A stretch of 32,000 nucleotides of DNA, taken from the NCBI RefSeq assembly GCF_001412615.1, contig NZ_CP013011.1, forward strand, positions 150,001 to 182,000. The letters are read 5' to 3'. The translations under genes were made by a program, and so were the position numbers. Under the pieces are notes generated by a model. That model saw nothing but the letters and a program-made list of their open reading frames with translations, was not told the origin of the DNA and ran no database searches. Shown in pieces: positions 2,955 to 22,011 of this stretch; the first letter of the stretch is position 1; every line of letters starts with the position of its first letter. The stretch is from Pyrodictium delaneyi (GTDB lineage Archaea > Thermoproteota > Thermoprotei_A > Sulfolobales > Pyrodictiaceae).

Positions 2955-5477
2955 ATGAAGGGTGTAGCTAGGTTGAACACAGCGCGTGCATCCTTCCTTG
3001 CACTCGCATTTGCTCTTGTAGCACTCTTATCCATAGCGTCAATCAGCTACACTCTCTATAAGAATGTAGAGGTTCTATCTATACGTGTTACCAATATCGA
3101 GGAAGCAAACAAGTACCTCAATAACAGCATGGGAGAAGTATTTTGGAAGCTCGAAGAAATGACGACACATATTAAGAAGATAGACGAGAAGCTCGCAGAA
3201 CTAGAGAATAATATATACAATGTGAATGAAGATATGCGAGCCTCAATAGAAGAAGTAAAGAACAGCTTAGAAGCAGCATTGGCTGGTATAAGCAAACAAG
3301 TATACAGACTCGCTGAAACCATAACGGCTATGAGAAACCAGGTAGAGGTACTCCAAGAGAAAGTAATCGAGCTAGAGAATTCTGATAGAGTGTCCTCTGA
3401 AAGGATTAACAACATATATCAAAAGCTCTCAGAACTAGAGAGACAGATCACCGACCTTGCAAAAAGACTTGACAACCTAGAACAAGAGGTAGCAAGACTG
3501 GAGGAACAGGCTGGCGAAAATGCCGGAAAAATCACGGACCTCGAAAACCAGTTATCAGTTATCCAGTCTCTATTGTCCAGCCTCGAGCAGGCAGTTGCGA
3601 CACTCCAAAACGTGGCCAAAGACCTGGTAGAGCGCGTAGAGGCCCTCGAGTCCGCTAACGCTACTATAACCGGTGGTGGATCCACCACTACAGCTGTCGC
3701 TAACGAGACTACAACGAAGATGTTTAAGTGGCTTATACTAGTCTACATGGCTGCTGACAACAATCTAGAACACTACGCGATAAAGGATATCAACGAGATG
3801 GAGGAAGTAGGCTCGACCAGCGACGTGGCAGTCGTAGTACTCGTAGACAGGGCTAGGGGCTTTGACGACAGTAATGGAGGTTGGACAGGCACCCGTGTAT
3901 ACCTAGTTACAAGGGATAACGACCCGGATACTATAGGGTCGCGGCTACTTTTCGACCTGGGCGAACAGAGTACTAACGACCCGCGCTTATTACGCTGGTT
4001 CGTAGAAAACATGACTGCTATGTTTCCAGCTGAACACATCTTGCTTATTCTCTGGAATCATGGTGCCGGTATACTAGGCGGGTTCGCGGTAGACATGGAT
4101 TCTAGCCTTGGCAACAAGACTATGGACGTTGTTGAGATTGCTAATGCACTCCGTGGCCTCGACATAGACATTATAGGGTTTGATGCATGTCTCATGGGAG
4201 GCTATGAGGTGGCCTACTACCTCCAGTCGGTTGGCAAGGTGATGGTAGCCTCGGCTGACACTGAGCCGGTAGAGGGTTGGCCCTACAAGGATATACTGGG
4301 GTACATAGCGGCGAACCCTGATGCAGACGTAGCCGAGGTAGCTGCAAGAATAGTGCAGCTCTACGGCGAGAGTCTGACTGAATACAATATGCCGGCCACA
4401 CTCATAGCGCTAAACCTAACATCTCTACAGAGCGTGAACGAGGCTATAGCAGCCCTTTCCTACCACACCTATACGCCGGAGGACGTCTGGGCTCTAGCCC
4501 GCGCCATGGATGCAGCAGTGATGTACCCGCTCTCCGACCAGTACATGCTATTCCTAATGGGTGTAGCACAATACGGCTACATAGACCTCTACAACGCCCT
4601 CGCTATAGCAGAGCAACTGGCAACCCAGTATACAAGAGGCGTAATAGAGCAGCTAATGGGAGTGTTAGAGAACGCTGTGATAGCCAGCTACGTTGGTACG
4701 GAGTCGCCGGAGGTGCTCGGGCTCTCAGCTATAGGCCGTGAGTCGCTCTATTCAATGACAGCAGAACTGTATAACAAGACGCTGTGGGAGGCCCTCGCGA
4801 CTCCATGGAGCAGTCTAGTAGACAAGGTCGATACAATACTCCTGCAAGACCATGAGCCGCCGCGCGCCTCTGCGAACGTCGTCGAGACCCCTGAAGGAAT
4901 GGAAGTGAATGTTAAAGTGGAGTCGCAGGATGTCTCGAACTTGTATCTAGAGATACGGGATAGTAGAGACAATGCTACACTCAGTATAGTGTTGCTCGCG
5001 CCTAGTACCGGTATAGAGATTGGAGACGAGTATATACCGGTGTGGTTGAACGGCTCAGAGTCGAGCTATGTGTGGAGTGGCGCTGTGTACCAGCTTGTAT
5101 TTAGTGGGACCGTGTATCCCTCGACGGTGGTGATTGACACGGCTACGGGGCTAGGCATAGTACCTGGTATATACCGGGGCGGTCCGCTAGACTATGCAGT
5201 CCCGGCGGTCATGTTCTTCAACTTGTCCACGGGAGAACCGCTCTACGTGGTAGATGCGGAAAACGCGCTACTGGTAGAGCTGACTGAGACCTCTGAGTTC
5301 CTTCCGCTGCTATTGACGCCTATGGGCTGGAGTCATACGAGCGGGTTCCTCCCGGTAGAAGGCCTCCGGCTAGAGCAGGTAGCCCCAAGCGACCTGGGCG
5401 CGGGGCTAGATGTCTACCTCGTTGCGGTAGACCTCGCGGGCAACTTCGCCGAGGAACTATTGTACAGCACAACGTAG
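2955..5477 (+). CDS. membrane-anchored coiled-coil stalk fused to a clostripain-family (peptidase C11) cysteine peptidase, with a C-terminal beta-rich region
   Basis: 840 aa. TM segment SFLALAFALVALLSIASISYTLY. About 200 aa of heptad-like E/L/N/K-rich sequence (LAELENNIYNV, VIELENSD, LSELERQITDL, LDNLEQEVARLEEQ, ITDLENQLSVIQSLLSSLEQAVATLQNV). Thr-rich linker GGGSTTTAVANETTTK. C11 hallmarks: LVYMAADNNLE, catalytic-type His in LILWNHGAG (codon 4059-4061) and Cys in IGFDACLMGG (codon 4188-4190), then VASADTEPVEGWPY. Confidence 0.8.
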   Translation: MKGVARLNTARASFLALAFALVALLSIASISYTLYKNVEVLSIRVTNIEEANKYLNNSMGEVFWKLEEMTTHIKKIDEKLAELENNIYNVNEDMRASIEEVKNSLEAALAGISKQVYRLAETITAMRNQVEVLQEKVIELENSDRVSSERINNIYQKLSELERQITDLAKRLDNLEQEVARLEEQAGENAGKITDLENQLSVIQSLLSSLEQAVATLQNVAKDLVERVEALESANATITGGGSTTTAVANETTTKMFKWLILVYMAADNNLEHYAIKDINEMEEVGSTSDVAVVVLVDRARGFDDSNGGWTGTRVYLVTRDNDPDTIGSRLLFDLGEQSTNDPRLLRWFVENMTAMFPAEHILLILWNHGAGILGGFAVDMDSSLGNKTMDVVEIANALRGLDIDIIGFDACLMGGYEVAYYLQSVGKVMVASADTEPVEGWPYKDILGYIAANPDADVAEVAARIVQLYGESLTEYNMPATLIALNLTSLQSVNEAIAALSYHTYTPEDVWALARAMDAAVMYPLSDQYMLFLMGVAQYGYIDLYNALAIAEQLATQYTRGVIEQLMGVLENAVIASYVGTESPEVLGLSAIGRESLYSMTAELYNKTLWEALATPWSSLVDKVDTILLQDHEPPRASANVVETPEGMEVNVKVESQDVSNLYLEIRDSRDNATLSIVLLAPSTGIEIGDEYIPVWLNGSESSYVWSGAVYQLVFSGTVYPSTVVIDTATGLGIVPGIYRGGPLDYAVPAVMFFNLSTGEPLYVVDAENALLVELTETSEFLPLLLTPMGWSHTSGFLPVEGLRLEQVAPSDLGAGLDVYLVAVDLAGNFAEELLYSTT

Positions 5478-6898: not shown

Positions 6899-7792
6899 AT
6901 GTCTACCCGTGCATCCCGCTCCTCAGCCCCAGTGGTTGTGAGCCTCCCCGGAAGCCTCTCCGGGGTAACAGCAATTGCAGCCAACAAAGTACAAGCCACG
7001 GTCACCCTCGAACAGCTCTCCGACGAGGGCATCGCGGTAGAGACCCGGGGCCCCCAGGGCCCGGCTCTACGCGCAGCCTACGAGACCGCGAGGCTACTCC
7101 TCGAAGCCCTAGGCGAAGAAGCCCAGCTACGCGTCATGCTCGAGCTAGAAAACCCGTCGATAAGCCCTATCTCCTCAGCCGCAGCAGCCACAGCGGCAGC
7201 ACTCATAGAACTCCTCGGGGTCGAGCCCGGCCCCCAGGAGCTAGCCCGGGTGCTAAACCGCGCCGTAGCAATAGCCTCCGGCAGGCCCCGCGCCGCACTA
7301 ACAGCCGCAGCCCTCCTAGGCGGCCTAGCCTCCGGCAGCGAGCAGCCACCCTACTACGCGCGCCACCCGGTCAAGCCCCCGAGCTGGCGGATATACGTAG
7401 CCAAGCCCTGCAAGCCCCTACCCGAGCCACCAGTCCTCGTCACAGCAGACAAGCTGCTCCAGCTAAGCCAGGCAGCAGCAACCCTACTAGCAGCAGCCGC
7501 GACAGAGGGCTGGAATACCCGCCTAGCAAAGCTAATGGCGCAAGAGAGCCCATGGGACTACGCTGCCCCCGAGCCGGTGAAGCGAGCCCGCCGAGAAGCC
7601 CTCGAAGCAGGCGCGGTAGCCGCAGGCCTAGACCCCTACACCGGCGTACTCGTAGTCCTCGCAGAGGAACCCGGACCAGCCGAGCGGGCGGCAGCGATAC
7701 TAGAAGCAGCCCAGGGCTGCCGGCCAGAACTAGTAGAGCTACAAGCATCAGACAAGGGAGCACTATTACGTAGAGAAGCCGAGGAGGTATAA
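6899..7792 (+). CDS. Ala-rich protein resembling a GHMP-kinase fold with a degenerate ATP-binding motif (function uncertain)
   Basis: 297 aa. ELENPSISPISSAAAATAAALIELL sits where GHMP kinases carry PxGSGLGSSAA, and a later AALLGGLASG resembles GHMP motif III. The size fits archaeal GHMP enzymes. The Gly residues of motif II are missing. Confidence 0.35.
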   Translation: MSTRASRSSAPVVVSLPGSLSGVTAIAANKVQATVTLEQLSDEGIAVETRGPQGPALRAAYETARLLLEALGEEAQLRVMLELENPSISPISSAAAATAAALIELLGVEPGPQELARVLNRAVAIASGRPRAALTAAALLGGLASGSEQPPYYARHPVKPPSWRIYVAKPCKPLPEPPVLVTADKLLQLSQAAATLLAAAATEGWNTRLAKLMAQESPWDYAAPEPVKRARREALEAGAVAAGLDPYTGVLVVLAEEPGPAERAAAILEAAQGCRPELVELQASDKGALLRREAEEV

Positions 7793-7993
7793 GCTCTCAC
7801 CTACAGTATATGCCATCACCCTTGTCTAAAAGAGGTAACACAATGGCCATCCAATCGGGGGCATGGGGTACTCCTTAGCAGGTGTATCACATTATTAACA
7901 TTATTAACTTCGCAGTTGCGACATGGTATATGATAATGTAGTGGATCTAAGTGGAGCAGGATACTCAGCCGACAAAGATCTGAAGGAGGAATG

Positions 7994-8072
7994 TGGTGCG
8001 GCGGCCGGGATTTGAACCCGGGATCACCGGCTTGGGAGGCCGGCGTCCTAGTCCAGGCTAGACGACCGCCGC
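7994..8072 (-). tRNA. tRNA-Gly (anticodon CCC), genomically encoded 3' CCA, no intron
   Basis: The reverse complement reads GCGGCGGTCGTCTAGCCTGGACTAGGACGCCGGCCTCCCAAGCCGGTGATCCCGGGTTCAAATCCCGGCCGCCGCACCA. It has a 7-bp all-G:C acceptor stem, anticodon stem CCGGC/GCCGG with loop CTCCCAA, T arm CCGGG-TTCAAAT-CCCGG, discriminator A and CCA. Folded by hand. Confidence 0.9.
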
Positions 8073-8137
8073 GCCCTGCTGGGCCCGCAGTGTTTGGCCC
8101 GGCCGCTCCATTGGTTTCTCTCGTCGCTGGCTCCGGG

Positions 8138-8145
8138 TTTTATAG
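8138..8145. promoter_or_regulatory. TATA-like box TTTTATAG (CTATAAAA on the other strand) between tRNA-Gly and thpR; possibly bidirectional
   Basis: This is the only A/T-rich element in the GC-rich 91-bp spacer. It begins 26 nt upstream of the GTG at 8164, giving a leaderless or near-leaderless thpR mRNA. It also lies about 66-73 nt upstream of the tRNA 5' end on the other strand, which would imply a roughly 40-nt tRNA leader. Confidence 0.35.
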
Positions 8146-8163
8146 GGTTTCCCTGGGCCCCTG

Positions 8164-8763
8164 GTGGCTCCTGGGTGCGGGTCTGGCTTGAGTGTCGAGC
8201 GTATACGCGCCTTCATAGCGGTCGATATTGAGGATCCACGGGTGGTTTCGCGGCTGGTGCAGATACGTGACGCGTTTGTGGCTACGGGTGCTCCTATGAA
8301 GCCTGTTGAGGACCAGAACCTGCATATCACGCTCCGGTTCCTTGGGAATATACCGTTGAGCCTCGTGGACGAGATTGAGCGTGTGATTGCCGCGTCTACT
8401 CCCCGCCGCGTGGTGATAAGGCTTCGCGGGGTGGGCGCGTTCCCGAGCCCAGCGCGGCCCCGCGTGATATGGGTGGGCGTGTCTGATGGCGCTGAGGAGC
8501 TCGAGCGCCTCTATAGGGAGATCGAGAGGGGGCTACGGCGGCTAGGGTTCCGGCCGGAGCGCGAGCAGTTCGTGCCCCATGTGACGCTTGCACGGCTCAA
8601 GGGGTCGCGGAACCTTGACCGTGTGGTGAAGCTGCTGCGGGAGATGGAGGACGTGGAGGTTGGTGAGATAGTGCTGGAGAGTGTCAGGCTCAAGCAGAGC
8701 ATATTGACGCCGAGGGGTCCGATATACCGGACACTGCGCGAGGTGAAGGCCTCTGAGTCCTAG
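8164..8763 (+). CDS. thpR: RNA 2',3'-cyclic phosphodiesterase / 2'-5' RNA ligase (2H phosphoesterase, ThpR/LigT family)
   Basis: 199 aa with both HxT/Sx motifs of the 2H superfamily: NLHITLRFLG and FVPHVTLARL. The family-typical N-terminus is RAFIAVDI. The start is either GTG 8164 or the in-frame TTG 8188. Confidence 0.85.
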   Translation: MAPGCGSGLSVERIRAFIAVDIEDPRVVSRLVQIRDAFVATGAPMKPVEDQNLHITLRFLGNIPLSLVDEIERVIAASTPRRVVIRLRGVGAFPSPARPRVIWVGVSDGAEELERLYREIERGLRRLGFRPEREQFVPHVTLARLKGSRNLDRVVKLLREMEDVEVGEIVLESVRLKQSILTPRGPIYRTLREVKASES

Positions 8764-9041
8764 GCCTCCCTTTCCCCGTCCTTGCTGCTCTTGTAGCGCT
8801 GCCAGATGGTGCCGCCTTCCCCGTCCTCGATGGCTATGACCCGGTGTAGTGGTATAACTGTGCCGTCTTCTAGCACTAGGTGGCTCCGGGTCACCCTGGC
8901 TATGCGCTCCCGGGGTATCCTCTTGACCCCGGTTGCTGTACCACGCTCGGCTATCACGATGTAGCCTGTGGATGATGTGTGGAAAAACCTTGCCACAGCC
9001 TCGTGTATCTCTCCACGTCGTCCAGGCAACAGTGTGTACAC
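8760..9041 (-). CDS. MJ1316/DUF504-like small protein (RNA cyclic-group end recognition domain)
   Basis: 93 aa. YIVIAERGTATGVKRIPRERIARVTRSHLVLEDGTVIPLHRVIAIEDGEGGTIWQR matches my recollection of the DUF504 consensus (..y.dRg...g.k.ip...i......fl.l.dg..IP.HRI..I....g..iW.R). It lies 27 nt downstream of, and on the same strand as, the flavin-reductase-like gene. Confidence 0.6.
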   Translation of the reverse strand: MYTLLPGRRGEIHEAVARFFHTSSTGYIVIAERGTATGVKRIPRERIARVTRSHLVLEDGTVIPLHRVIAIEDGEGGTIWQRYKSSKDGEREA

Positions 9042-9068
9042 CCTTCCGCGCGGCCTGCCGGGGCTGCT

Positions 9069-9677
9069 CTACACGTTGAGGTCGCTTCTAGCTCTTGGTG
9101 TCCTCTTCGGGGTGTATATGCCGCTGTTGGTGGTGAAGGCGCGGCCGGTGCTGTGGAGGAGTATCCGGGCCTTGCGTAGCTCCCAGCCGTAACGGGGATT
9201 GTAGAGCTCCGCGTCAGCGTAGGCTGCTGCCACATCGGCCACTATTAGGTGGACGTCATCTGCTAGGTCGCTGAGAACCCTGTAGACACGGGCCTCGACA
9301 ACGCCCACTGGCCGGGGCTTGACTAGCCTAGGGGCCCCCGTGACCGTGTCGCGGGCGACCTCGGCGCCGAGGAGCCTCAGCTTGTCGACCTCCCTGCCGC
9401 TGGTCGTGCCGGCAGCGTAGACGAAGTCTACCTCGTCCACAGTGAACACGTTGACGGTGAATACGCCAGACTCTATTATCAGCTCCGGGGTGTAGGCCTC
9501 CCTGTCGAGGGCGGCGACTATCCGTGGCGGCTCCTCGCTGAAGGGCATCACCCAGGACGCTGACATGAAGTTTACCCGGCCCCGGGCCTCGGCTACGAGC
9601 ACGTAGGCTGGCCGGGGTGCTAGGACACGTGGCCACCGCTCACCGGCGTCCACGTAGCCTTCGGGGACTCCTGCCAC
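9069..9677 (-). CDS. flavin reductase-like FMN-binding domain protein
   Basis: 202 aa. PRPAYVLVAEARGRVNFMSASWVMPFSEEPPRIVAALDREAYTPELIIESGVFTVNV is the typical core of the flavin_reduct split-barrel domain. GTG start. Confidence 0.75.
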   Translation of the reverse strand: MAGVPEGYVDAGERWPRVLAPRPAYVLVAEARGRVNFMSASWVMPFSEEPPRIVAALDREAYTPELIIESGVFTVNVFTVDEVDFVYAAGTTSGREVDKLRLLGAEVARDTVTGAPRLVKPRPVGVVEARVYRVLSDLADDVHLIVADVAAAYADAELYNPRYGWELRKARILLHSTGRAFTTNSGIYTPKRTPRARSDLNV

Positions 9678-9868
9678 GGCGCAGACACCGAGTGTGTTCC
9701 TAGATTCGGCGCCCTATACTAGCTCCTACACGGGTTGCCCAGTCGTCTGTGGCGTGTGTCGGCTGGGTAGAGTGTCCGGGACGTACGCTATAATTGGGGG
9801 TTCACGGTGGTAGTGGCCCCTGGGGGAAACCACTCGGCCTAGAGCGAGGACGCGAGGTGTAAACACGT

Positions 9869-11323
9869 ATGAGCGCGAGGATACCCTTGAAGAGGGTTAG
9901 CGACTATGAGTGGATGATACCTAAGGGCGCTAAGCCCTGCATGAGGGTCCCATCGATAATCTTCGCCGATGACTTCCTGCTCGAGAAAATGAAGGGCGAC
10001 CTCACGCTAGTACAGGCTGCTAACGTAGCCTGCCTCCAGGGTATACAGAAGTACAGCATTGTGATGCCCGACGGACACCAGGGCTACGGATTCCCGATCG
10101 GCGGCGTAGCAGCCATGGCTATAGACGAAGACGGTGTGATAAGCCCCGGCGGTGTCGGTTACGATATCAACTGTGGTGTACGCGTCATACGTACCAACCT
10201 CGACATAAAGGATGTGAAGCCTAAGCTACGCGAGCTCATAGAGGAGCTATTCCGCAACATACCAAGCGGCCTCGGCAGCACTGGCAAGATACGCCTCAGT
10301 GTACAAGAGCTAGACCGTGTACTAAACGAGGGTGTCGAGTGGGCGGTACAGAAGGGCTACGGCTGGGCCGACGACCCGGAGCACATCGAGGAGCGGGGTA
10401 GCTGGAGCCTAGCAGACGCTAGCAAGGTGAGCCAGCGCGCTAAGAGGCGTGGCGCTGAACAGCTAGGCACCCTGGGCAGCGGTAACCACTTCCTAGAGGT
10501 ACAGGTAGTCGACAAGATATACGACCCAGAGATAGCCAAGGCGATGGGTATAACCCATGAAGGCCAGATAATGGTCATGGTGCATACCGGCAGCCGTGGC
10601 CTAGGCCACCAGGTCGCAAGCGACTACCTCATGATAATGGAGCGTGCCATGAGGAAGTATGGTATAAGGCCGCCAGACCGCGAGCTAGCCAGCGTGCCCT
10701 ACAGCACCCGCGAGGCTCAGGACTACCTCCGCGCAATGGCAGCAGCGGCCAACTTTGCCTGGACCAACAGGCAGCTCATAACCTACTGGACCCGCGAGAG
10801 CTTCCAGCGCGTATTCCACCGCGACCCAGACCAGCTCGACATGAAGATAGTCTACGACGTAGCCCACAATATAGCCAAGATAGAGGAGCACGACGTAGAC
10901 GGCAAGAGGATGAAGCTCATAGTACACCGCAAGGGCGCCACTAGGGCCTTCCCACCAGGCCACCCAGAGATACCCAAGGACTACCAGGCGATAGGCCAGC
11001 CCGTGCTCATACCCGGCAGCATGGGTACTGCGAGCTACATACTGGTAGGTGTCCCCACTGGCGCCCGTGCCTGGTACACAGCGCCCCACGGCGCAGGCCG
11101 CTGGATGAGCCGCGCAGCGGCCAAGAGGAGCAGGAGCTACCACGAGGTCATAAGGGAGCTAGAGCAGAAGGGTATACTGATACGCGCTAGCAGCCGTGCC
11201 ACAGTCGTAGAGGAGATGCCACAGGCCTACAAGGACGTAGACCGTGTAGCCCTCGTAGCCCACAAGGTAGGCATAGCCAAGATGGTCGTAAGGCTACGCC
11301 CCATAGCCGTGACAAAGGGCTAA
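9869..11323 (+). CDS. rtcB: RNA-splicing ligase RtcB (3'-phosphate/5'-hydroxyl RNA ligase), intein-free
   Basis: 484 aa with the RtcB signatures PDGHQGYGFPIGG, GGVGYDINCGVR, GSGNHFLEVQ, HTGSRGLGHQ, DVAHNIA, PGSMG and APHGAGR (the guanylylated-His motif). Confidence 0.95.
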   Translation: MSARIPLKRVSDYEWMIPKGAKPCMRVPSIIFADDFLLEKMKGDLTLVQAANVACLQGIQKYSIVMPDGHQGYGFPIGGVAAMAIDEDGVISPGGVGYDINCGVRVIRTNLDIKDVKPKLRELIEELFRNIPSGLGSTGKIRLSVQELDRVLNEGVEWAVQKGYGWADDPEHIEERGSWSLADASKVSQRAKRRGAEQLGTLGSGNHFLEVQVVDKIYDPEIAKAMGITHEGQIMVMVHTGSRGLGHQVASDYLMIMERAMRKYGIRPPDRELASVPYSTREAQDYLRAMAAAANFAWTNRQLITYWTRESFQRVFHRDPDQLDMKIVYDVAHNIAKIEEHDVDGKRMKLIVHRKGATRAFPPGHPEIPKDYQAIGQPVLIPGSMGTASYILVGVPTGARAWYTAPHGAGRWMSRAAAKRSRSYHEVIRELEQKGILIRASSRATVVEEMPQAYKDVDRVALVAHKVGIAKMVVRLRPIAVTKG

Positions 11324-11361
11324 CCTCGTGCCCAAGCCTTTGTCTTCATCAAAATGTTTTT
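11311..11361 (+). terminator. hairpin spanning the rtcB stop codon followed by a T5 tract (putative archaeal terminator)
   Basis: GACAAAGG (11311-11318) pairs with CCTTTGTC (11337-11344) across an 18-nt loop that contains the TAA stop. TTTTT lies at 11357-11361. Oligo-T is the usual archaeal termination signal. Confidence 0.35.
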
Positions 11362-11564
11362 ACGCGTGGCATCCAAGCTGTCCACCTTCTCCCCATGTCC
11401 CTAGGTTATCCCGGCTACGACTCTCTCAGCTACAAGCCTGCGAGGCCCCCGGGCCAGAGTTGTTGCGTGACGTATGCTACTTCTGGTGTCTCTGCCAGCA
11501 AGGGAACCCCTATCAGTCGGTAGACACCTAGGTAGAAGCCTCTCGGGGAGGAGGCTGGAGAGGA

Positions 11565-12071
11565 ATGAGCGGTGAGGGCCCCTTCGAGGACATCGAGAAG
11601 GGTCTACGCGAAGTGCTAGCCCAGCTAAAGTGCCCCGGCTTCGCTCATGCGCCCCATACAGCGGACATAATCATAGTCGCCCGTGGCCGTAGTCTTGAGG
11701 AGGCGTTCGAGCAAGCGGCGCGCGGCGTCTACGAGGTTATAACCGATACGAGTAAGGTCGAGCCCCGCGAGGAACGGGTAATAGAGACTAGCGGTGTCGA
11801 CCTCTACCAGCTCCTCTACCGGTGGATAGAGGACCTCCTCTACTACACTGATAGTGAGGGCCTCGTGTTCTCAAAGTTCAAGGTGGAGCGTATAGAGCGG
11901 ATTGGCGAGGGCGAGGAGGCCGAGTACCGTCTAAAGGGCCGAGCCTGGGGCGAGCCCTTCAACGAGGAGAAGCACCCGCACCGTACCATAGTTAAGGCTA
12001 TGACCTATGCTATGATGGAGATTGTAAAGGAGAATGGCTGCTGGAGAGTACAGTTCGTTGTCGACATATAG
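11565..12071 (+). CDS. archease (RtcB activator/chaperone)
   Basis: 168 aa. It has the N-terminal HTADIIIVARGRSLEEAFEQAARGVYEV and the C-terminal VKAMTYAMMEIVKENGCWRVQFVVDI typical of archease. A GGAGG-rich stretch lies directly upstream. Confidence 0.9.
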   Translation: MSGEGPFEDIEKGLREVLAQLKCPGFAHAPHTADIIIVARGRSLEEAFEQAARGVYEVITDTSKVEPREERVIETSGVDLYQLLYRWIEDLLYYTDSEGLVFSKFKVERIERIGEGEEAEYRLKGRAWGEPFNEEKHPHRTIVKAMTYAMMEIVKENGCWRVQFVVDI

Positions 12072-12168
12072 CTGCGGCGAGATCTGCGGCTTCCCGCCCT
12101 CTATCTACTGTGGGGTCATTTACACCTCCTACCGGTCTAGCCGGTGGAGGACTAATATTCTGTAGACA

Positions 12169-12573
12169 GTGCTAGGGCTTTTTGGTGGGTCTGTGGTGGG
12201 CTTGCTTACTAGCCTACTACGAGGCCTCGTAGTGCGTCGACCCGGCCTTGAGGGCCAAGGTGGTGCTGAAGGACCCTTAGCAGATAGGCTGCGGGAGGCT
12301 GAGGAAGCACTTCGTAGCGTGGTGCTCCCGGGCTACGATGTAGACATAATCTCCGCGGGGCTCGTCGAGAGGATACGCGTCGGGCTCGACGGTAAGTCGA
12401 TCATGGTTGTGCTGGGATATAGTAGGAGTAATCCTGGCTGCAGCTTCTGCCGCTTCATAAGCAGTGTTGCGTGGACAAAGATTATACGTGACACGAGGCG
12501 TGCACTAGCTGCTAGAGGGTTCGATAAGATAGTACTGGTCGATGGAGCTACGGGCGCCGAGCTTGACGCATAG
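12169..12573 (+). CDS. small protein with a DUF59/MIP18-like (Fe-S assembly-type) core; function uncertain
   Basis: 134 aa. EEALRSVVLPGYDVDIISAGLVERIRVGLDGKSIMVVLGYSRSNPGCSFC resembles the DUF59 pattern (V.DP....ivdlGlv..i.v.......v.m.lT..gCP). GTG start and a hydrophobic N-terminal extension. Confidence 0.4.
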   Translation: MLGLFGGSVVGLLTSLLRGLVVRRPGLEGQGGAEGPLADRLREAEEALRSVVLPGYDVDIISAGLVERIRVGLDGKSIMVVLGYSRSNPGCSFCRFISSVAWTKIIRDTRRALAARGFDKIVLVDGATGAELDA

Positions 12574-12602
12574 AAAGACAAAGGTGTAATGGAGGAGGGT
12601 TC

Positions 12603-14651
12603 TTAGTCCTCGTTCCTCGCGCCGGGTATGTGCTTGTTTAACCAGTCAAGTATGAGCTGTAGCCTCTTCACCCGGTGCCTGGGCTTACCGCTACGGGAGA
12701 GATCGTGGTTCTCGCCCGGGAATATCGCTAGCTTTGTTTCGACGCCACGGAGCTTCAGCGCAGTGTAGAGCTGTAGTGCCTGGTCGAGCCAGCAACGATA
12801 GTCCTCGTTAGAGTGGATTATCAGTGTAGGTGTCTCTATGCGGTCGGCGTAGCGGAGTGGGCTCTTCTCCCAGCAGAGGTCGCTCCTCCTCCACGGGGTG
12901 CAGCAGAGCTGGTCCTCGACAAAGTACCAGCCGATGTCCGTGGTGCCGTACATGCTTATCCAGTTAGATATACCCCTCATCGTCACGGCTGCGCGGAAGA
13001 AGCTCGTGTGTCCTATCACCCAGTTGGTCATGAAGCCGCCGTAGCTCCCGCCCATCACGGCTGCGCGGCTCTTGGGGAGACCGAGCTGCTTCACAACGTA
13101 GTCTACAGCCTCCATGAGGTCCATGTAGTCGCGCTCGCCGTAGCGGCAGCGTATATCGGCGAAGTCCTCGCTATAGCCGTCGCTGCCTCGGGGGTTAACG
13201 TATACCACCGTGTAGCCAGCGTTGGATAACACGTGGAACTCGTGCATGAACCCGTAGCCCCACATAGTCTTGGGGCCGCCGTGGATATAGAGTACCCAGC
13301 CGCGCTGCTCTACCCCCTCCGGCGGTGGGAGCACCCAGCCCTCCACAGTGGCGCCGTCGCTAGCTCTGAAGCTAAACCTCCTTGGCTGGGCTAGCTTGTA
13401 GCGCCTCTTCCAGGCCTCGGTATGCCGTGTGAGCCTCCGGGCCTCCATGCCCCGGTAGAGGTACAGCTCCTTGGGATCCACGGGAGTCATTAGAGTATAG
13501 GCTATTATGGAGCCGTCGCGACTGGCTGAGAACTCGTCGACAACAGCCTCGCCAGGGTCTAGTACGGGCTCCGGCTCCATGCCGGGCTGGACACGGTATA
13601 GAATAACACGCCCAGAGTCACTCACGAGGAAGTATATGCCGCGTATGGTCCACTGTAGCTTCTTGAGGCAGCTACGGAACCTGACATCACTGTTTACTGT
13701 GTTCACGGCGTTACGGTCGAGGCTACAAGTGAGGCACTCGAGCCCGCCAGTCTCAGGGTTTAGCAGCATTATCTTCTGGTGGCTAGAGAAGCCCCTCTCG
13801 CCCCGGTGTCCTAGGTAAGCTAGCAGTTTACTGTCGGGGCTCCAGGCTAACTCTCCGTAGCCCCGTAGACCTTGAGCGACTACATGTGCCTCTCCGTTCT
13901 CCACGTCGTAGACGTAGACGTCGAGCAGGTATGGTCGCAGCATGTCGGCTGCGACGCTTATGGCTATTTTCTTACCGTCAGGGCTCCAGGCTACGTCGCT
14001 GACCTGGAGCCAGTTAAGGCCAAGCTCTATCCTCTCCATTATGCCGGAGTCCACATCTATTATGAAGGGCTCTATACGGGTTTTGTAGACGAAGCCCTTA
14101 CCGTTAAACCAGACCGGCAGCGTCTCTATCTCCTTGACGTCCTCGTCCGGCCTCCCCATGGGCGATGCTGCGGCCAATCTTCTGCTATCTGGACTCCAGG
14201 AGAGCGAGACTATGCCTTCGACCCTGGCGATTAGTTGGCTAGCACCAGGTGCATCAAGGCTAGCTAGCCGTAGCTCTATACCCGGCAGCTTATTCCCTCT
14301 CCTATCCCTCTGCTCAACCTTCCTAGCGAAGACGTAGCGCCGGCCGTCAGGGCTCGGTACGGGACACGAGTCCCGAGGCCCGCTCTGGAGCACAATTTGC
14401 TCGCCGCTATCGACCTTCACGGCCAGTATGCTCGACTCATAGCTGTCTGTGGCGAGACTCACACGGGCAGCTGTGTAGAGAATGTAGCGGCCATCTGGAG
14501 TCACGGCAGGATTCGAGACTAGAACAAGGCCATCAAGACTATCTGGGCCAAGCTTTTCAGCACCAGGCATGCCGGTTCCTCTCCACAGCCCAGGAATGCT
14601 CCTAGTATATGTGGTGAAAAGAATCGTGCGGCTCCGCATAGTAGACCTCAC
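12603..14651 (-). CDS. S9-family serine peptidase (prolyl oligopeptidase / acylaminoacyl-peptidase type)
   Basis: 682 aa. The N-terminal half has repeated WSPD(G/S) beta-propeller motifs (WSPDSRRLAA, WSPDGKKIAI, WSPDSKLLAY). The C-terminal alpha/beta hydrolase has the nucleophile elbow GGSYGG, an Asp in HSNEDYRC and a His in FPGENHDL. An alternative start at Met28 (ATG 14570-14568, MPGAEKLG...) is plausible. Confidence 0.85.
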   Translation of the reverse strand: MRSTMRSRTILFTTYTRSIPGLWRGTGMPGAEKLGPDSLDGLVLVSNPAVTPDGRYILYTAARVSLATDSYESSILAVKVDSGEQIVLQSGPRDSCPVPSPDGRRYVFARKVEQRDRRGNKLPGIELRLASLDAPGASQLIARVEGIVSLSWSPDSRRLAAASPMGRPDEDVKEIETLPVWFNGKGFVYKTRIEPFIIDVDSGIMERIELGLNWLQVSDVAWSPDGKKIAISVAADMLRPYLLDVYVYDVENGEAHVVAQGLRGYGELAWSPDSKLLAYLGHRGERGFSSHQKIMLLNPETGGLECLTCSLDRNAVNTVNSDVRFRSCLKKLQWTIRGIYFLVSDSGRVILYRVQPGMEPEPVLDPGEAVVDEFSASRDGSIIAYTLMTPVDPKELYLYRGMEARRLTRHTEAWKRRYKLAQPRRFSFRASDGATVEGWVLPPPEGVEQRGWVLYIHGGPKTMWGYGFMHEFHVLSNAGYTVVYVNPRGSDGYSEDFADIRCRYGERDYMDLMEAVDYVVKQLGLPKSRAAVMGGSYGGFMTNWVIGHTSFFRAAVTMRGISNWISMYGTTDIGWYFVEDQLCCTPWRRSDLCWEKSPLRYADRIETPTLIIHSNEDYRCWLDQALQLYTALKLRGVETKLAIFPGENHDLSRSGKPRHRVKRLQLILDWLNKHIPGARNED

Positions 14652-18694: not shown

Positions 18695-20113
18695 TTACCC
18701 CCTCTTCTCTAGAAGTGCGTAGAAGAAGCCTATAGTGTCATGCCGGTGCGGCCATGCCCTCATAGTGCCAGGCAGCAGTGGCGACTCGTCGTAGGGGCCT
18801 CGAATCGGTACTAACCGGAACTCGGGATGACGTTCGAGAAACCACTTGATGTTTTCCTCGTTCTCCTCAGGCAGGAGGCTGCACGTGGTATAGAGGAGCC
18901 GGCCACCGGGCTTGACAAGCCTTGCAGCGGCCTCCAGCATCTCCCGCTGTAGCTTCACTATCTCGTCGAGCCCGTCCTCCCGTATCCTCCACCGCAGCTC
19001 CGGGTTCTTAGCTATAGTGCCAGTGCTGGTACACGGTGCATCCAGCATAACCCGGTCGGCTACTTCTTCCCCTAGTACACGAGGCGCCCTCCTAGCATCC
19101 ATCTTGAATATCTTCACGATTGTTATCCCCATGCGGCGGAGTATCATTCTCATCCGCTCTATACGCTTCTCGTCAATATCAAACGCGTATATCCGGCCAC
19201 GATTCTTCATAAGCTCGGCCATGTGGCTAGTCTTCCCGCCAGGCGCAGCGGCGAGATCAACCACAGTCATCCCGGGTTCTGGCGCCAATATGAGTGAGGC
19301 AGCCGCACTAGCCTCCTCCTGGATCACCATCTTGCCGCCCCGATAAAGCGGACTATTATCGAAGTCGTAGGGCCCCTGGAACTTCACTACTACCGGTACA
19401 CGCTTACTGACCACAGGCTTCTTGCCCTCGCGCCGGAGAGCCTTGACAACCTCCTCTACGCTGGCCTTAAGCGTGTTAACCCTGACGCTTATCAAGGGCT
19501 TCTTGTTGAGAGCCTTGAACAGCTCTTCGGCCTCCTCGGGCCCTAGTAGCCTCCTCATACGCTGTATGAACCAGGCAGGGAGAAGATACCGCCACTCCAA
19601 CGCTTCCTCGATGCTGCGGGGGCGCGGCCGATAGTCTAGCAACTTATCAAAGACTCTCCAGTAGTACATGCCCACATAAGGATGCGTTATTGCAGATAGA
19701 TAGTCAGCGATACCCCATTTCAACGCGTTCAACGTAGCCTTGTCGGGCCTGTGGAACAACACAATATCAGCTGCGACGCGGAGGGCAGCACGCAGCCATG
19801 GGTCGAGTATGAGTGGCGACTCTACACCCGTCAGCTCTCGCGCAACACGATCGAGCAGCCCCATCCTCTTCATAGTATCGTAGAACACGGAGGTGAGGAG
19901 CCGGTCAAGCCCGGTACCGAGGATACCATGCCTCTTGAATACTACACGTTTAGCATGCTGGCTCGGCTTAAACTCTTCCGCAGCCTTCACAGTCTCAACT
20001 AGTATCCTAAGCCCCCGAGCCGGTATAGACAGCTTAGGCTTCCCAGCCCTCTCAGCCTCCACAACCTCCCAGACCTGTTGTGCAAGCTCATCAAGCCTCT
20101 GTTCGGCAGTCAT
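18695..20113 (-). CDS. NOL1/NOP2/Sun-family RNA (cytosine-C5)-methyltransferase
   Basis: 472 aa. SAM motif VVDLAAAPGGKTSH, the catalytic Cys motifs LDAPCTSTGT and LLYTTCSLLPEENE, and an N-terminal helical RNA-binding-type extension. Confidence 0.9.
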   Translation of the reverse strand: MTAEQRLDELAQQVWEVVEAERAGKPKLSIPARGLRILVETVKAAEEFKPSQHAKRVVFKRHGILGTGLDRLLTSVFYDTMKRMGLLDRVARELTGVESPLILDPWLRAALRVAADIVLFHRPDKATLNALKWGIADYLSAITHPYVGMYYWRVFDKLLDYRPRPRSIEEALEWRYLLPAWFIQRMRRLLGPEEAEELFKALNKKPLISVRVNTLKASVEEVVKALRREGKKPVVSKRVPVVVKFQGPYDFDNSPLYRGGKMVIQEEASAAASLILAPEPGMTVVDLAAAPGGKTSHMAELMKNRGRIYAFDIDEKRIERMRMILRRMGITIVKIFKMDARRAPRVLGEEVADRVMLDAPCTSTGTIAKNPELRWRIREDGLDEIVKLQREMLEAAARLVKPGGRLLYTTCSLLPEENEENIKWFLERHPEFRLVPIRGPYDESPLLPGTMRAWPHRHDTIGFFYALLEKRG

Positions 20114-21885: not shown

Positions 21886-22011
21886 GGCGGATCCCGGCTT
21901 GGGGGCGCTGCGGGGCCTCGCGGACCCCACAGCCTCCCCCAACGCGGCCGGCTTAACTTCCGGGTTCGACACGAGTCCGGGTGTTGCCCGACCGCTATGG
22001 CCGGGTCCAGG
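21886..22011 (-). rRNA. 5S ribosomal RNA, stand-alone gene (ends +/- about 5 nt)
   Basis: The minus strand reads ...CTGGACCCGGCCATAGCGGTCGGGCAACACCCGGACTCGTGTCGAACCCGGAAGTTAAGCCGGCCGCGTTGGGGGAGGCTGTGGGGTCCGCGAGGCCCCGCAGCGCCCCCAAGCCGGGATCCG... The block GGGCAACACCCGGACUC...UCGAACCCGGAAGUUAAGCC is the conserved crenarchaeal 5S core as I recall it from Sulfolobus. The termini pair as helix I (GGACCCGG with CCGGG-A-TCC). A pyrimidine-rich tract follows the 3' end. Confidence 0.9.

Follow-up and report, generated by a model that had tools for sequence, protein, structure and literature searches.

RtcB and its activator archease together catalyse the GTP- and Mn-dependent joining of RNA ends bearing a 2',3'-cyclic phosphate or a 3'-phosphate to 5'-OH ends. 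Their genes are known to form a 'tRNA splicing operon' (Desai et al. 2014, PMC3973293), within which a tRNA 5-methylcytosine (m5C) methyltransferase modulated by archease is sometimes found. RtcB opens the cyclic phosphate by itself, and it is inert on the 2'-PO4 ends that the E. coli 2H phosphodiesterase ThpR yields (PMC4201822). The MJ1316 domain has been proposed to recognise cyclic-phosphate ends of RNA, a comparative-genomic prediction of Burroughs & Aravind (2016) that we give as it is cited in PMC6514570, and in metazoa the flavoprotein PYROXD1 shields the active-site cysteine of RTCB from oxidative inactivation (PMC12263435). Here we analyse a locus of the archaeon Pyrodictium delaneyi in which genes for RtcB, archease, ThpR and an MJ1316 protein are gathered with a tRNA-Gly gene and a flavoredoxin-like gene, six genes in a span of 4078 bp (positions 7994-12071 of the window, the whole 32,000-nt stretch of DNA analysed, positions 150,001 to 182,000 of contig NZ_CP013011.1).

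With slightly better than even confidence, we read this locus as a genuine arrangement in which housekeeping genes for RNA ends lie side by side within one lineage, the genus Pyrodictium; it is not an operon, nor is it a multi-gene system that has been conserved. Its components and the RtcB-archease pairing are already known, the cluster as a whole does not extend beyond that genus, and no new system is revealed. An earlier sequence-based description of this stretch, hereafter the initial annotation, had listed five RNA-end-related elements within 4 kb; all five were recovered where, or close to where, it had placed them, and a sixth gene, the flavoredoxin-like one, had gone unmentioned. The features and the evidence for each are as follows.

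7994..8072, minus strand: tRNA-Gly(CCC) (ARAGORN; Rfam RF00005, 61.8 bits; sequence read directly)
8139..8144, plus strand: TTTATA element, putative archaeal TATA box, about 20 nt upstream of the thpR start (sequence reading)
8164..8763, plus strand: ThpR/LigT-type 2H RNA 2',3'-cyclic phosphodiesterase (TIGR02258, PF02834, HxT motifs)
8760..9041, minus strand: MJ1316/UPF0248 (DUF504) small protein, open reading frame (ORF) of 93 aa (PF04457, NF003272, family profile)
9069..9677, minus strand: flavoredoxin-like protein of the Flavin_Reduct family, binding flavin mononucleotide (FMN) (PF01613, 69.7 bits)
9869..11323, plus strand: RtcB 3'-phosphate/5'-OH RNA ligase, the tRNA-splicing ligase (PF01139, 600 bits)
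11565..12071, plus strand: archease, the RtcB activator (PF01951, 159 bits; NF001617, 208.9 bits)

The locus is not an operon: its genes occupy both strands and fall into at least four transcription units. Judged by strand and spacing, these would be tRNA-Gly (-), thpR (+) with its own TATA element, the flavoredoxin-like gene followed by MJ1316 (-), and rtcB (+) followed by archease (+). The tRNA-Gly and thpR genes are divergent in orientation, while thpR and MJ1316 are convergent with stop codons that overlap by 4 nt. Upstream of thpR, the TTTATA element is kept in P. occultum and aligns with a TTTAAG variant in locus L005 (compared loci are cited by L numbers throughout), and it would likely give thpR a promoter of its own; an alternative thpR start at TTG 8188 gives a protein of 191 aa. 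The flavoredoxin-like gene lies between MJ1316 and rtcB, divergent from rtcB and upstream of MJ1316 on the same strand. Because the gap between the latter two is short (27-39 nt in P. delaneyi) and gives way to an 8-nt overlap in P. occultum, they are probably co-transcribed as a bicistron; the likely true start of MJ1316, TTG 9029, gives 89 aa and is preceded by a Shine-Dalgarno-like GGAAGGGTG. On the plus strand, rtcB is followed by a T-run, and archease begins 241 nt downstream with a Shine-Dalgarno-like GGAGGAGG 8 nt before its ATG. An Rfam scan of positions 7700-12700 at E <= 1 returned the tRNA and no small RNA, including in the rtcB-archease spacer.

We next consider how far the grouping of these genes is conserved. 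The entire block is kept in P. occultum, including the tRNA gene and the downstream genes for a 144-aa protein and an S9 peptidase, and synteny between the two species stops just beyond the tRNA. Elsewhere among the Pyrodictiaceae the block is split on either side of MJ1316, leaving either tRNA-Gly/ThpR/MJ1316 or MJ1316/flavoredoxin/RtcB. Loci L001, L002, L020 and L100 (Pyrofollis japonicus) are of the second kind: MJ1316 is divergent from a tandem flavoredoxin-rtcB pair, the flanks differ and ThpR was not found, while archease is absent from L001, L002 and L100, the L020 stretch being too short to tell. Loci L003, L004 and L005 are of the first kind: MJ1316 is near ThpR, and RtcB is missing from the surrounding 10 kb. 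An extra gene has been inserted in L003 and L004, and these two do not have the tRNA-Gly gene beside thpR, where it is found in L005 and in P. occultum (L012). A locus scan with a narrower MJ1316 alignment returned 11 loci, P. delaneyi and P. occultum not among them.

Outside the family the block is missing. ThpR, RtcB, archease and flavoredoxin were all absent, by tblastn (E 0.5), precomputed Pfam assignments and local profile search, from twelve further MJ1316 loci; these derive from a Hyperthermus-like metagenome-assembled genome (MAG), Sulfolobales, Desulfurococcales, other Thermoproteota and more distant archaea. In a sample of 80 metagenomic loci centred on RtcB, an adjacent flavoredoxin gene is present in all four whose RtcB is 86% or more identical to that of P. 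delaneyi, and in L022 and L023 this gene is the sole partner and convergent with rtcB. None of the thirty loci with 62-80% identity has a partner in the flanking sequence available, at most 6 kb, and among the soil archaea, at 57-62% identity, archease lies directly upstream in 45 of 46 loci with no other partner, an arrangement that matches the published operon (PMC3973293). The full block is thus absent from the 76 RtcB-centred and 12 MJ1316-centred loci of other lineages; linkage of thpR, MJ1316, rtcB and archease was not found in any independent lineage and recurs whole only in P. occultum. The initial annotation had made its claim depend on clustering conserved beyond this genome, and what it gets is a cluster whole in a second species, broken in the rest of the family and absent outside it. 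The adjacency of ThpR and tRNA is best read as inherited gene order, and each additional link (MJ1316-ThpR, MJ1316-RtcB), seen in one family, would represent about one evolutionary event.

The identities of the individual components are well founded. ThpR scores 150.3 bits against the TIGR02258 equivalog model (cut-off 65.7) and matches PF02834 at E 2.7e-30, and its translation shows both extended 2H motifs, HITLRF and HVTLAR, so that the two HxT motifs reported by the initial annotation are confirmed. RtcB covers the whole PF01139 profile (positions 1-426 of 426) at 600.3 bits. Its translation shows the active-site stretches DINCG, GSGNHF, HTGSRGLGH and APHGAGR, and the metal- and GMP-binding residues are present in Cys102, GSGNHF, HTGSRGLGH and the APHGAGR histidine. 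It had been described as free of inteins, and a profile scan together with comparison with relatives likewise found none. RtcB of L047, L051 and L055, by comparison, has an insertion of 1.1-1.4 kb exactly between N101 and C102 (numbered as in the window protein), which by its position is consistent with an intein at the catalytic cysteine. Archease stands well above the NF001617 cut-off of 126, as the initial annotation would have it. With archease, RtcB would ligate tRNA exons after cleavage by the splicing endonuclease.

The 93-aa ORF (99% identical to Pyrde_0177) required more care. The initial annotation had staked its reading on a match to PF04457; the match exists (E 8.6e-5), but at 23.6 bits it lies below the gathering score of 26.3, as does the NF003272 match (E 4.7e-8, 33.6 bits) relative to its cut-off of 92. 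We nevertheless place the protein firmly in the MJ1316/UPF0248 family on profile and motif grounds, because its orthologues bear the precomputed PF04457 assignment, because a profile search with it and its orthologues against 1.8 billion representatives retrieved 66 proteins, mostly of 75-100 aa, whose scanned members match PF04457 (several above cut-off), and because an alignment of 57 sequences shows an IPLHRV motif with R33, P64, H66 and R67 invariant. A local hidden Markov model (HMM) of the family retrieves all of the family loci at 52-100 bits. In the AlphaFold2 (AF2) model a helix at the N-terminus leads into a small beta-barrel (predicted local distance difference test, pLDDT, 77). Foldseek placed SspB, Hfq and WYL closest to it, with weak similarity and no match below E 1e-3; a sequence search of the PDB found no match, and an exact-product look-up of the P. 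delaneyi protein found no record. It would most likely be a small RNA-end-binding barrel, in which the invariant Arg, His and Arg are candidates for holding the terminal (cyclic) phosphate. Our literature search found no biochemical evidence for any member of the family. P0062, a 475-aa representative in which an N-terminal MJ1316 domain is fused to the RNA 3'-terminal phosphate cyclase RtcA (PF01137 and PF05189), independently supports a connection with the chemistry of cyclic phosphates. In another protein, P0069, the domain is fused to a xylose-isomerase-like TIM barrel.

The neighbours of MJ1316 elsewhere are heterogeneous. In L016 (5703-8672) the gene is flanked by gatD and gatE and the gene ends overlap, in L019 (5412-8880) it follows a class II aminoacyl-tRNA synthetase with a tRNA intron endonuclease 1 kb away, and in another locus its neighbours are a nucleotidyltransferase and a Clp1-type kinase, all of which fit a general role of MJ1316 at tRNA or RNA ends. 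Three loci have a HIT protein and, overlapping, a kinase-like protein some 455 aa long. This conserved protein was seen in Desulfurococcales MAGs (L014 7240-8607, L017 7240-8622, L018 1852-3207) downstream of MJ1316, whose gene overlaps it; it is a recurrent partner, and its only matches are weak ones to APH/WaaY/RIO (protein-kinase-like), confined to the C-terminal third.

The most persistent link of the locus is one that the initial annotation did not notice, the adjacency of rtcB and the flavoredoxin-like gene. The latter (100% identical to Pyrde_0178) exceeds the PF01613 Flavin_Reduct cut-off of 27 bits, and among solved structures it comes closest to the flavoredoxins 3bnk (E 2.3e-10) and 2d5m. 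It adjoins rtcB in every examined locus whose RtcB is at least 85% identical (the window, L012/L013, L001, L002 and L020-L023), as well as in L100, for which RtcB identity was not computed. Three arrangements of the pair occur, with the flavoredoxin-like gene divergent from rtcB, in tandem upstream of it or convergent downstream, while ThpR, archease, MJ1316 and the outer flanks around the pair vary. Flavoredoxin homologues outside the Pyrodictiaceae, at 52% and 46% identity, are not near rtcB; an exact-product look-up of the Hyperthermus flavoredoxin found no record, and a literature search found no paper tying flavoredoxin or flavin reductase to RtcB. We consider the adjacency a modest new lead and suggestive only, because single-gene inversions keep adjacency trivially and all of the loci belong to one family, within which MJ1316, flavoredoxin and RtcB may be functionally linked.

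Four considerations weigh against our favoured reading of a lineage-restricted juxtaposition. All of the conservation evidence comes from one family, at roughly one evolutionary event per link. Three units related to RNA cyclic phosphate ends (RNA>p) within 4 kb are improbable by chance, so the neighbourhood might be more integrated than we propose. Of the MJ1316 neighbourhoods elsewhere, half have nothing to do with RNA (a Mo-hydroxylase subunit, glutamate dehydrogenase, transporters), which weakens any inference about MJ1316 from its context. Finally, the regiochemistry of Pyrodictium ThpR is taken over from the E. coli enzyme.

The alternative that survives best, which we regard as rather unlikely, is historical accident: the genes would be independent housekeeping genes that have been neighbours since the Pyrodictiaceae ancestor and are drifting apart, with no functional pair except RtcB-archease. 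The decay of the cluster at family level, the lack of any link repeated in an independent lineage and the mixed company that MJ1316 keeps elsewhere all speak for it, as does the fact that archease is not adjacent to RtcB in L001, L002, L022 and L100; the inversions mentioned above would likewise preserve pairs without selection. Against it, a back-of-envelope calculation takes a genome of some 2000 genes and asks how often two named genes, thpR and MJ1316, would each lie no more than four positions from rtcB; the answer is roughly (8/2000)^2, or about 2e-5. By this estimate the clustering of protein genes in P. delaneyi is non-random; the placement of the tRNA need not be, a tRNA gene within 4 kb having a probability of about 0.1. 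Accident also sits poorly with the survival of the flavoredoxin-RtcB pair, often with MJ1316, while every other flank has changed, and with the independent MJ1316-RtcA fusion, which makes a connection of MJ1316 to RtcB or ThpR biologically plausible.

At the opposite extreme, the initial annotation envisaged a broader locus for handling cyclic-phosphate ends, in which MJ1316 would recognise the ends and hand them to RtcB and archease for sealing or to ThpR for hydrolysis, the genes being clustered as a single repair or splicing system. We judge this improbable. It can draw on the preservation of the full block in two Pyrodictium species whose flanks differ, on the fact that MJ1316 remains with one partner or the other after rearrangement, and on the P0062 fusion. 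As a conserved module, however, it fails: the block does not persist beyond one family (none of the 12 MJ1316 loci and none of the 30 RtcB loci of other Thermoproteota), within that family the break falls to one side of MJ1316 or the other, the pattern predicted for random breakage or neutral decay, and the genes lie on opposite strands with separate promoters, ThpR being convergent to MJ1316 with its own TATA element. The tRNA-Gly gene contains no intron on direct reading, its CCA end being encoded in the gene, and it is therefore excluded as a splicing substrate of RtcB.

The enzymology further constrains that proposal, under which ThpR and RtcB were to compete for the same ends or to process them in sequence. 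Healing by ThpR followed by sealing by RtcB was rejected as unlikely on the published regiochemistry, RtcB being inert on 2'-PO4 ends (PMC4201822). Competition, or diversion of ends, is then the sole remaining relation, plausible if the archaeal enzyme shares the regiochemistry of that of E. coli; by opening cyclic phosphates to 2'-phosphates, ThpR would withdraw ends from the RtcB pathway and not feed them in.

A more specific idea concerns the flavoredoxin-like gene, and we put it forward as very much a long shot. In the Pyrodictiaceae, the flavoredoxin-like FMN protein and MJ1316 would be lineage-specific accessories of RtcB, the flavoprotein keeping the cysteine/Mn active site functional as a prokaryotic, non-homologous counterpart of PYROXD1, and MJ1316 capturing 2',3'-cyclic-phosphate exon ends. 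What suggests it is that the gene adjoins rtcB in every family-level locus examined, in three orientations and with other flanks changing. An anti-phage defence or conflict-type RNA repair locus, finally, was dropped as an explanation when PADLOC defence-system models gave no match among the seven proteins scanned.

Several other features of the window were recorded in passing. We found no second copy of the 3' half of tRNA-Gly within the 32,000 nt, and the gene was accordingly rejected as an integration site with a duplicated attachment (att) half. Downstream of it, positions 7880-7950 form an AT-rich intergenic stretch with a tandem 'CATTATTAA' repeat; synteny with P. occultum and L005 stops at the tRNA, and neither of them keeps this stretch. 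An RsmB/NSUN-type m5C RNA methyltransferase (PF01189, E 3e-61) is encoded at 18695-20113 (-), 6.6 kb from archease and not adjacent to it. A stand-alone 5S rRNA gene lies at 21889-22008 (-) (Rfam RF00001, 59.7 bits), and the 840-aa protein encoded at 2955-5477 (+) combines a clostripain-family (Peptidase_C11) domain with about 240 N-terminal residues that resemble a coiled coil.

The locus is of interest for two proteins. MJ1316/UPF0248 is a widespread archaeal and eukaryotic domain whose function is known from computation only, and its position here between a cyclic phosphodiesterase and a cyclic-phosphate ligase makes this a handy genome for testing the prediction with thermostable proteins. 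The flavoredoxin-RtcB lead, in turn, bears on the upkeep of the oxidation-sensitive active site of RtcB outside metazoa.

Set beside the described systems, the flavoredoxin-like protein resembles PYROXD1 (PMC12263435) in being a flavin-binding protein tied to RtcB, by gene adjacency in Pyrodictium and by a physical complex in metazoa. The folds are unrelated, an FMN split-barrel of the Flavin_Reduct family in Pyrodictium and a pyridine-nucleotide-disulfide oxidoreductase binding flavin adenine dinucleotide (FAD) in PYROXD1, and the analogy is speculative. Pyrodictium is moreover a strict anaerobe, a setting different from that of PYROXD1. Like other members of the MJ1316/UPF0248/DUF504 family, the Pyrodictium protein is archaeal, stands alone at about 85 aa and has the IPLHRV motif, the invariant Arg/His/Arg, orthologues assigned to PF04457 and a genomic context of the RNA-repair type; it differs in its sub-threshold Pfam score and in having a flavoredoxin-like protein, and no RNA enzyme, as its immediate and probable operon partner. 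The Pyrodictium ThpR has the HxTxxF and HxTxxR motifs and the TIGR02258 equivalog match of E. coli ThpR (LigT) and P. horikoshii PH0099 (Remus et al. 2014, PMC4201822), whereas this putative enzyme adjoins MJ1316 near rtcB in a setting specific to Pyrodictium and close relatives. A further comparison is with the rtcB-archease operon (PMC3973293). The Pyrodictium order is rtcB then archease across a 241-nt spacer, unlike the 45 soil-archaeal loci with archease directly upstream, and archease is not adjacent to rtcB in the sister genera of the Pyrodictiaceae or in some 30 other Thermoproteota loci; yet, as in that operon, the RtcB and archease genes of Pyrodictium are adjacent on the same strand, and both proteins are full-length, high-scoring members of their families.

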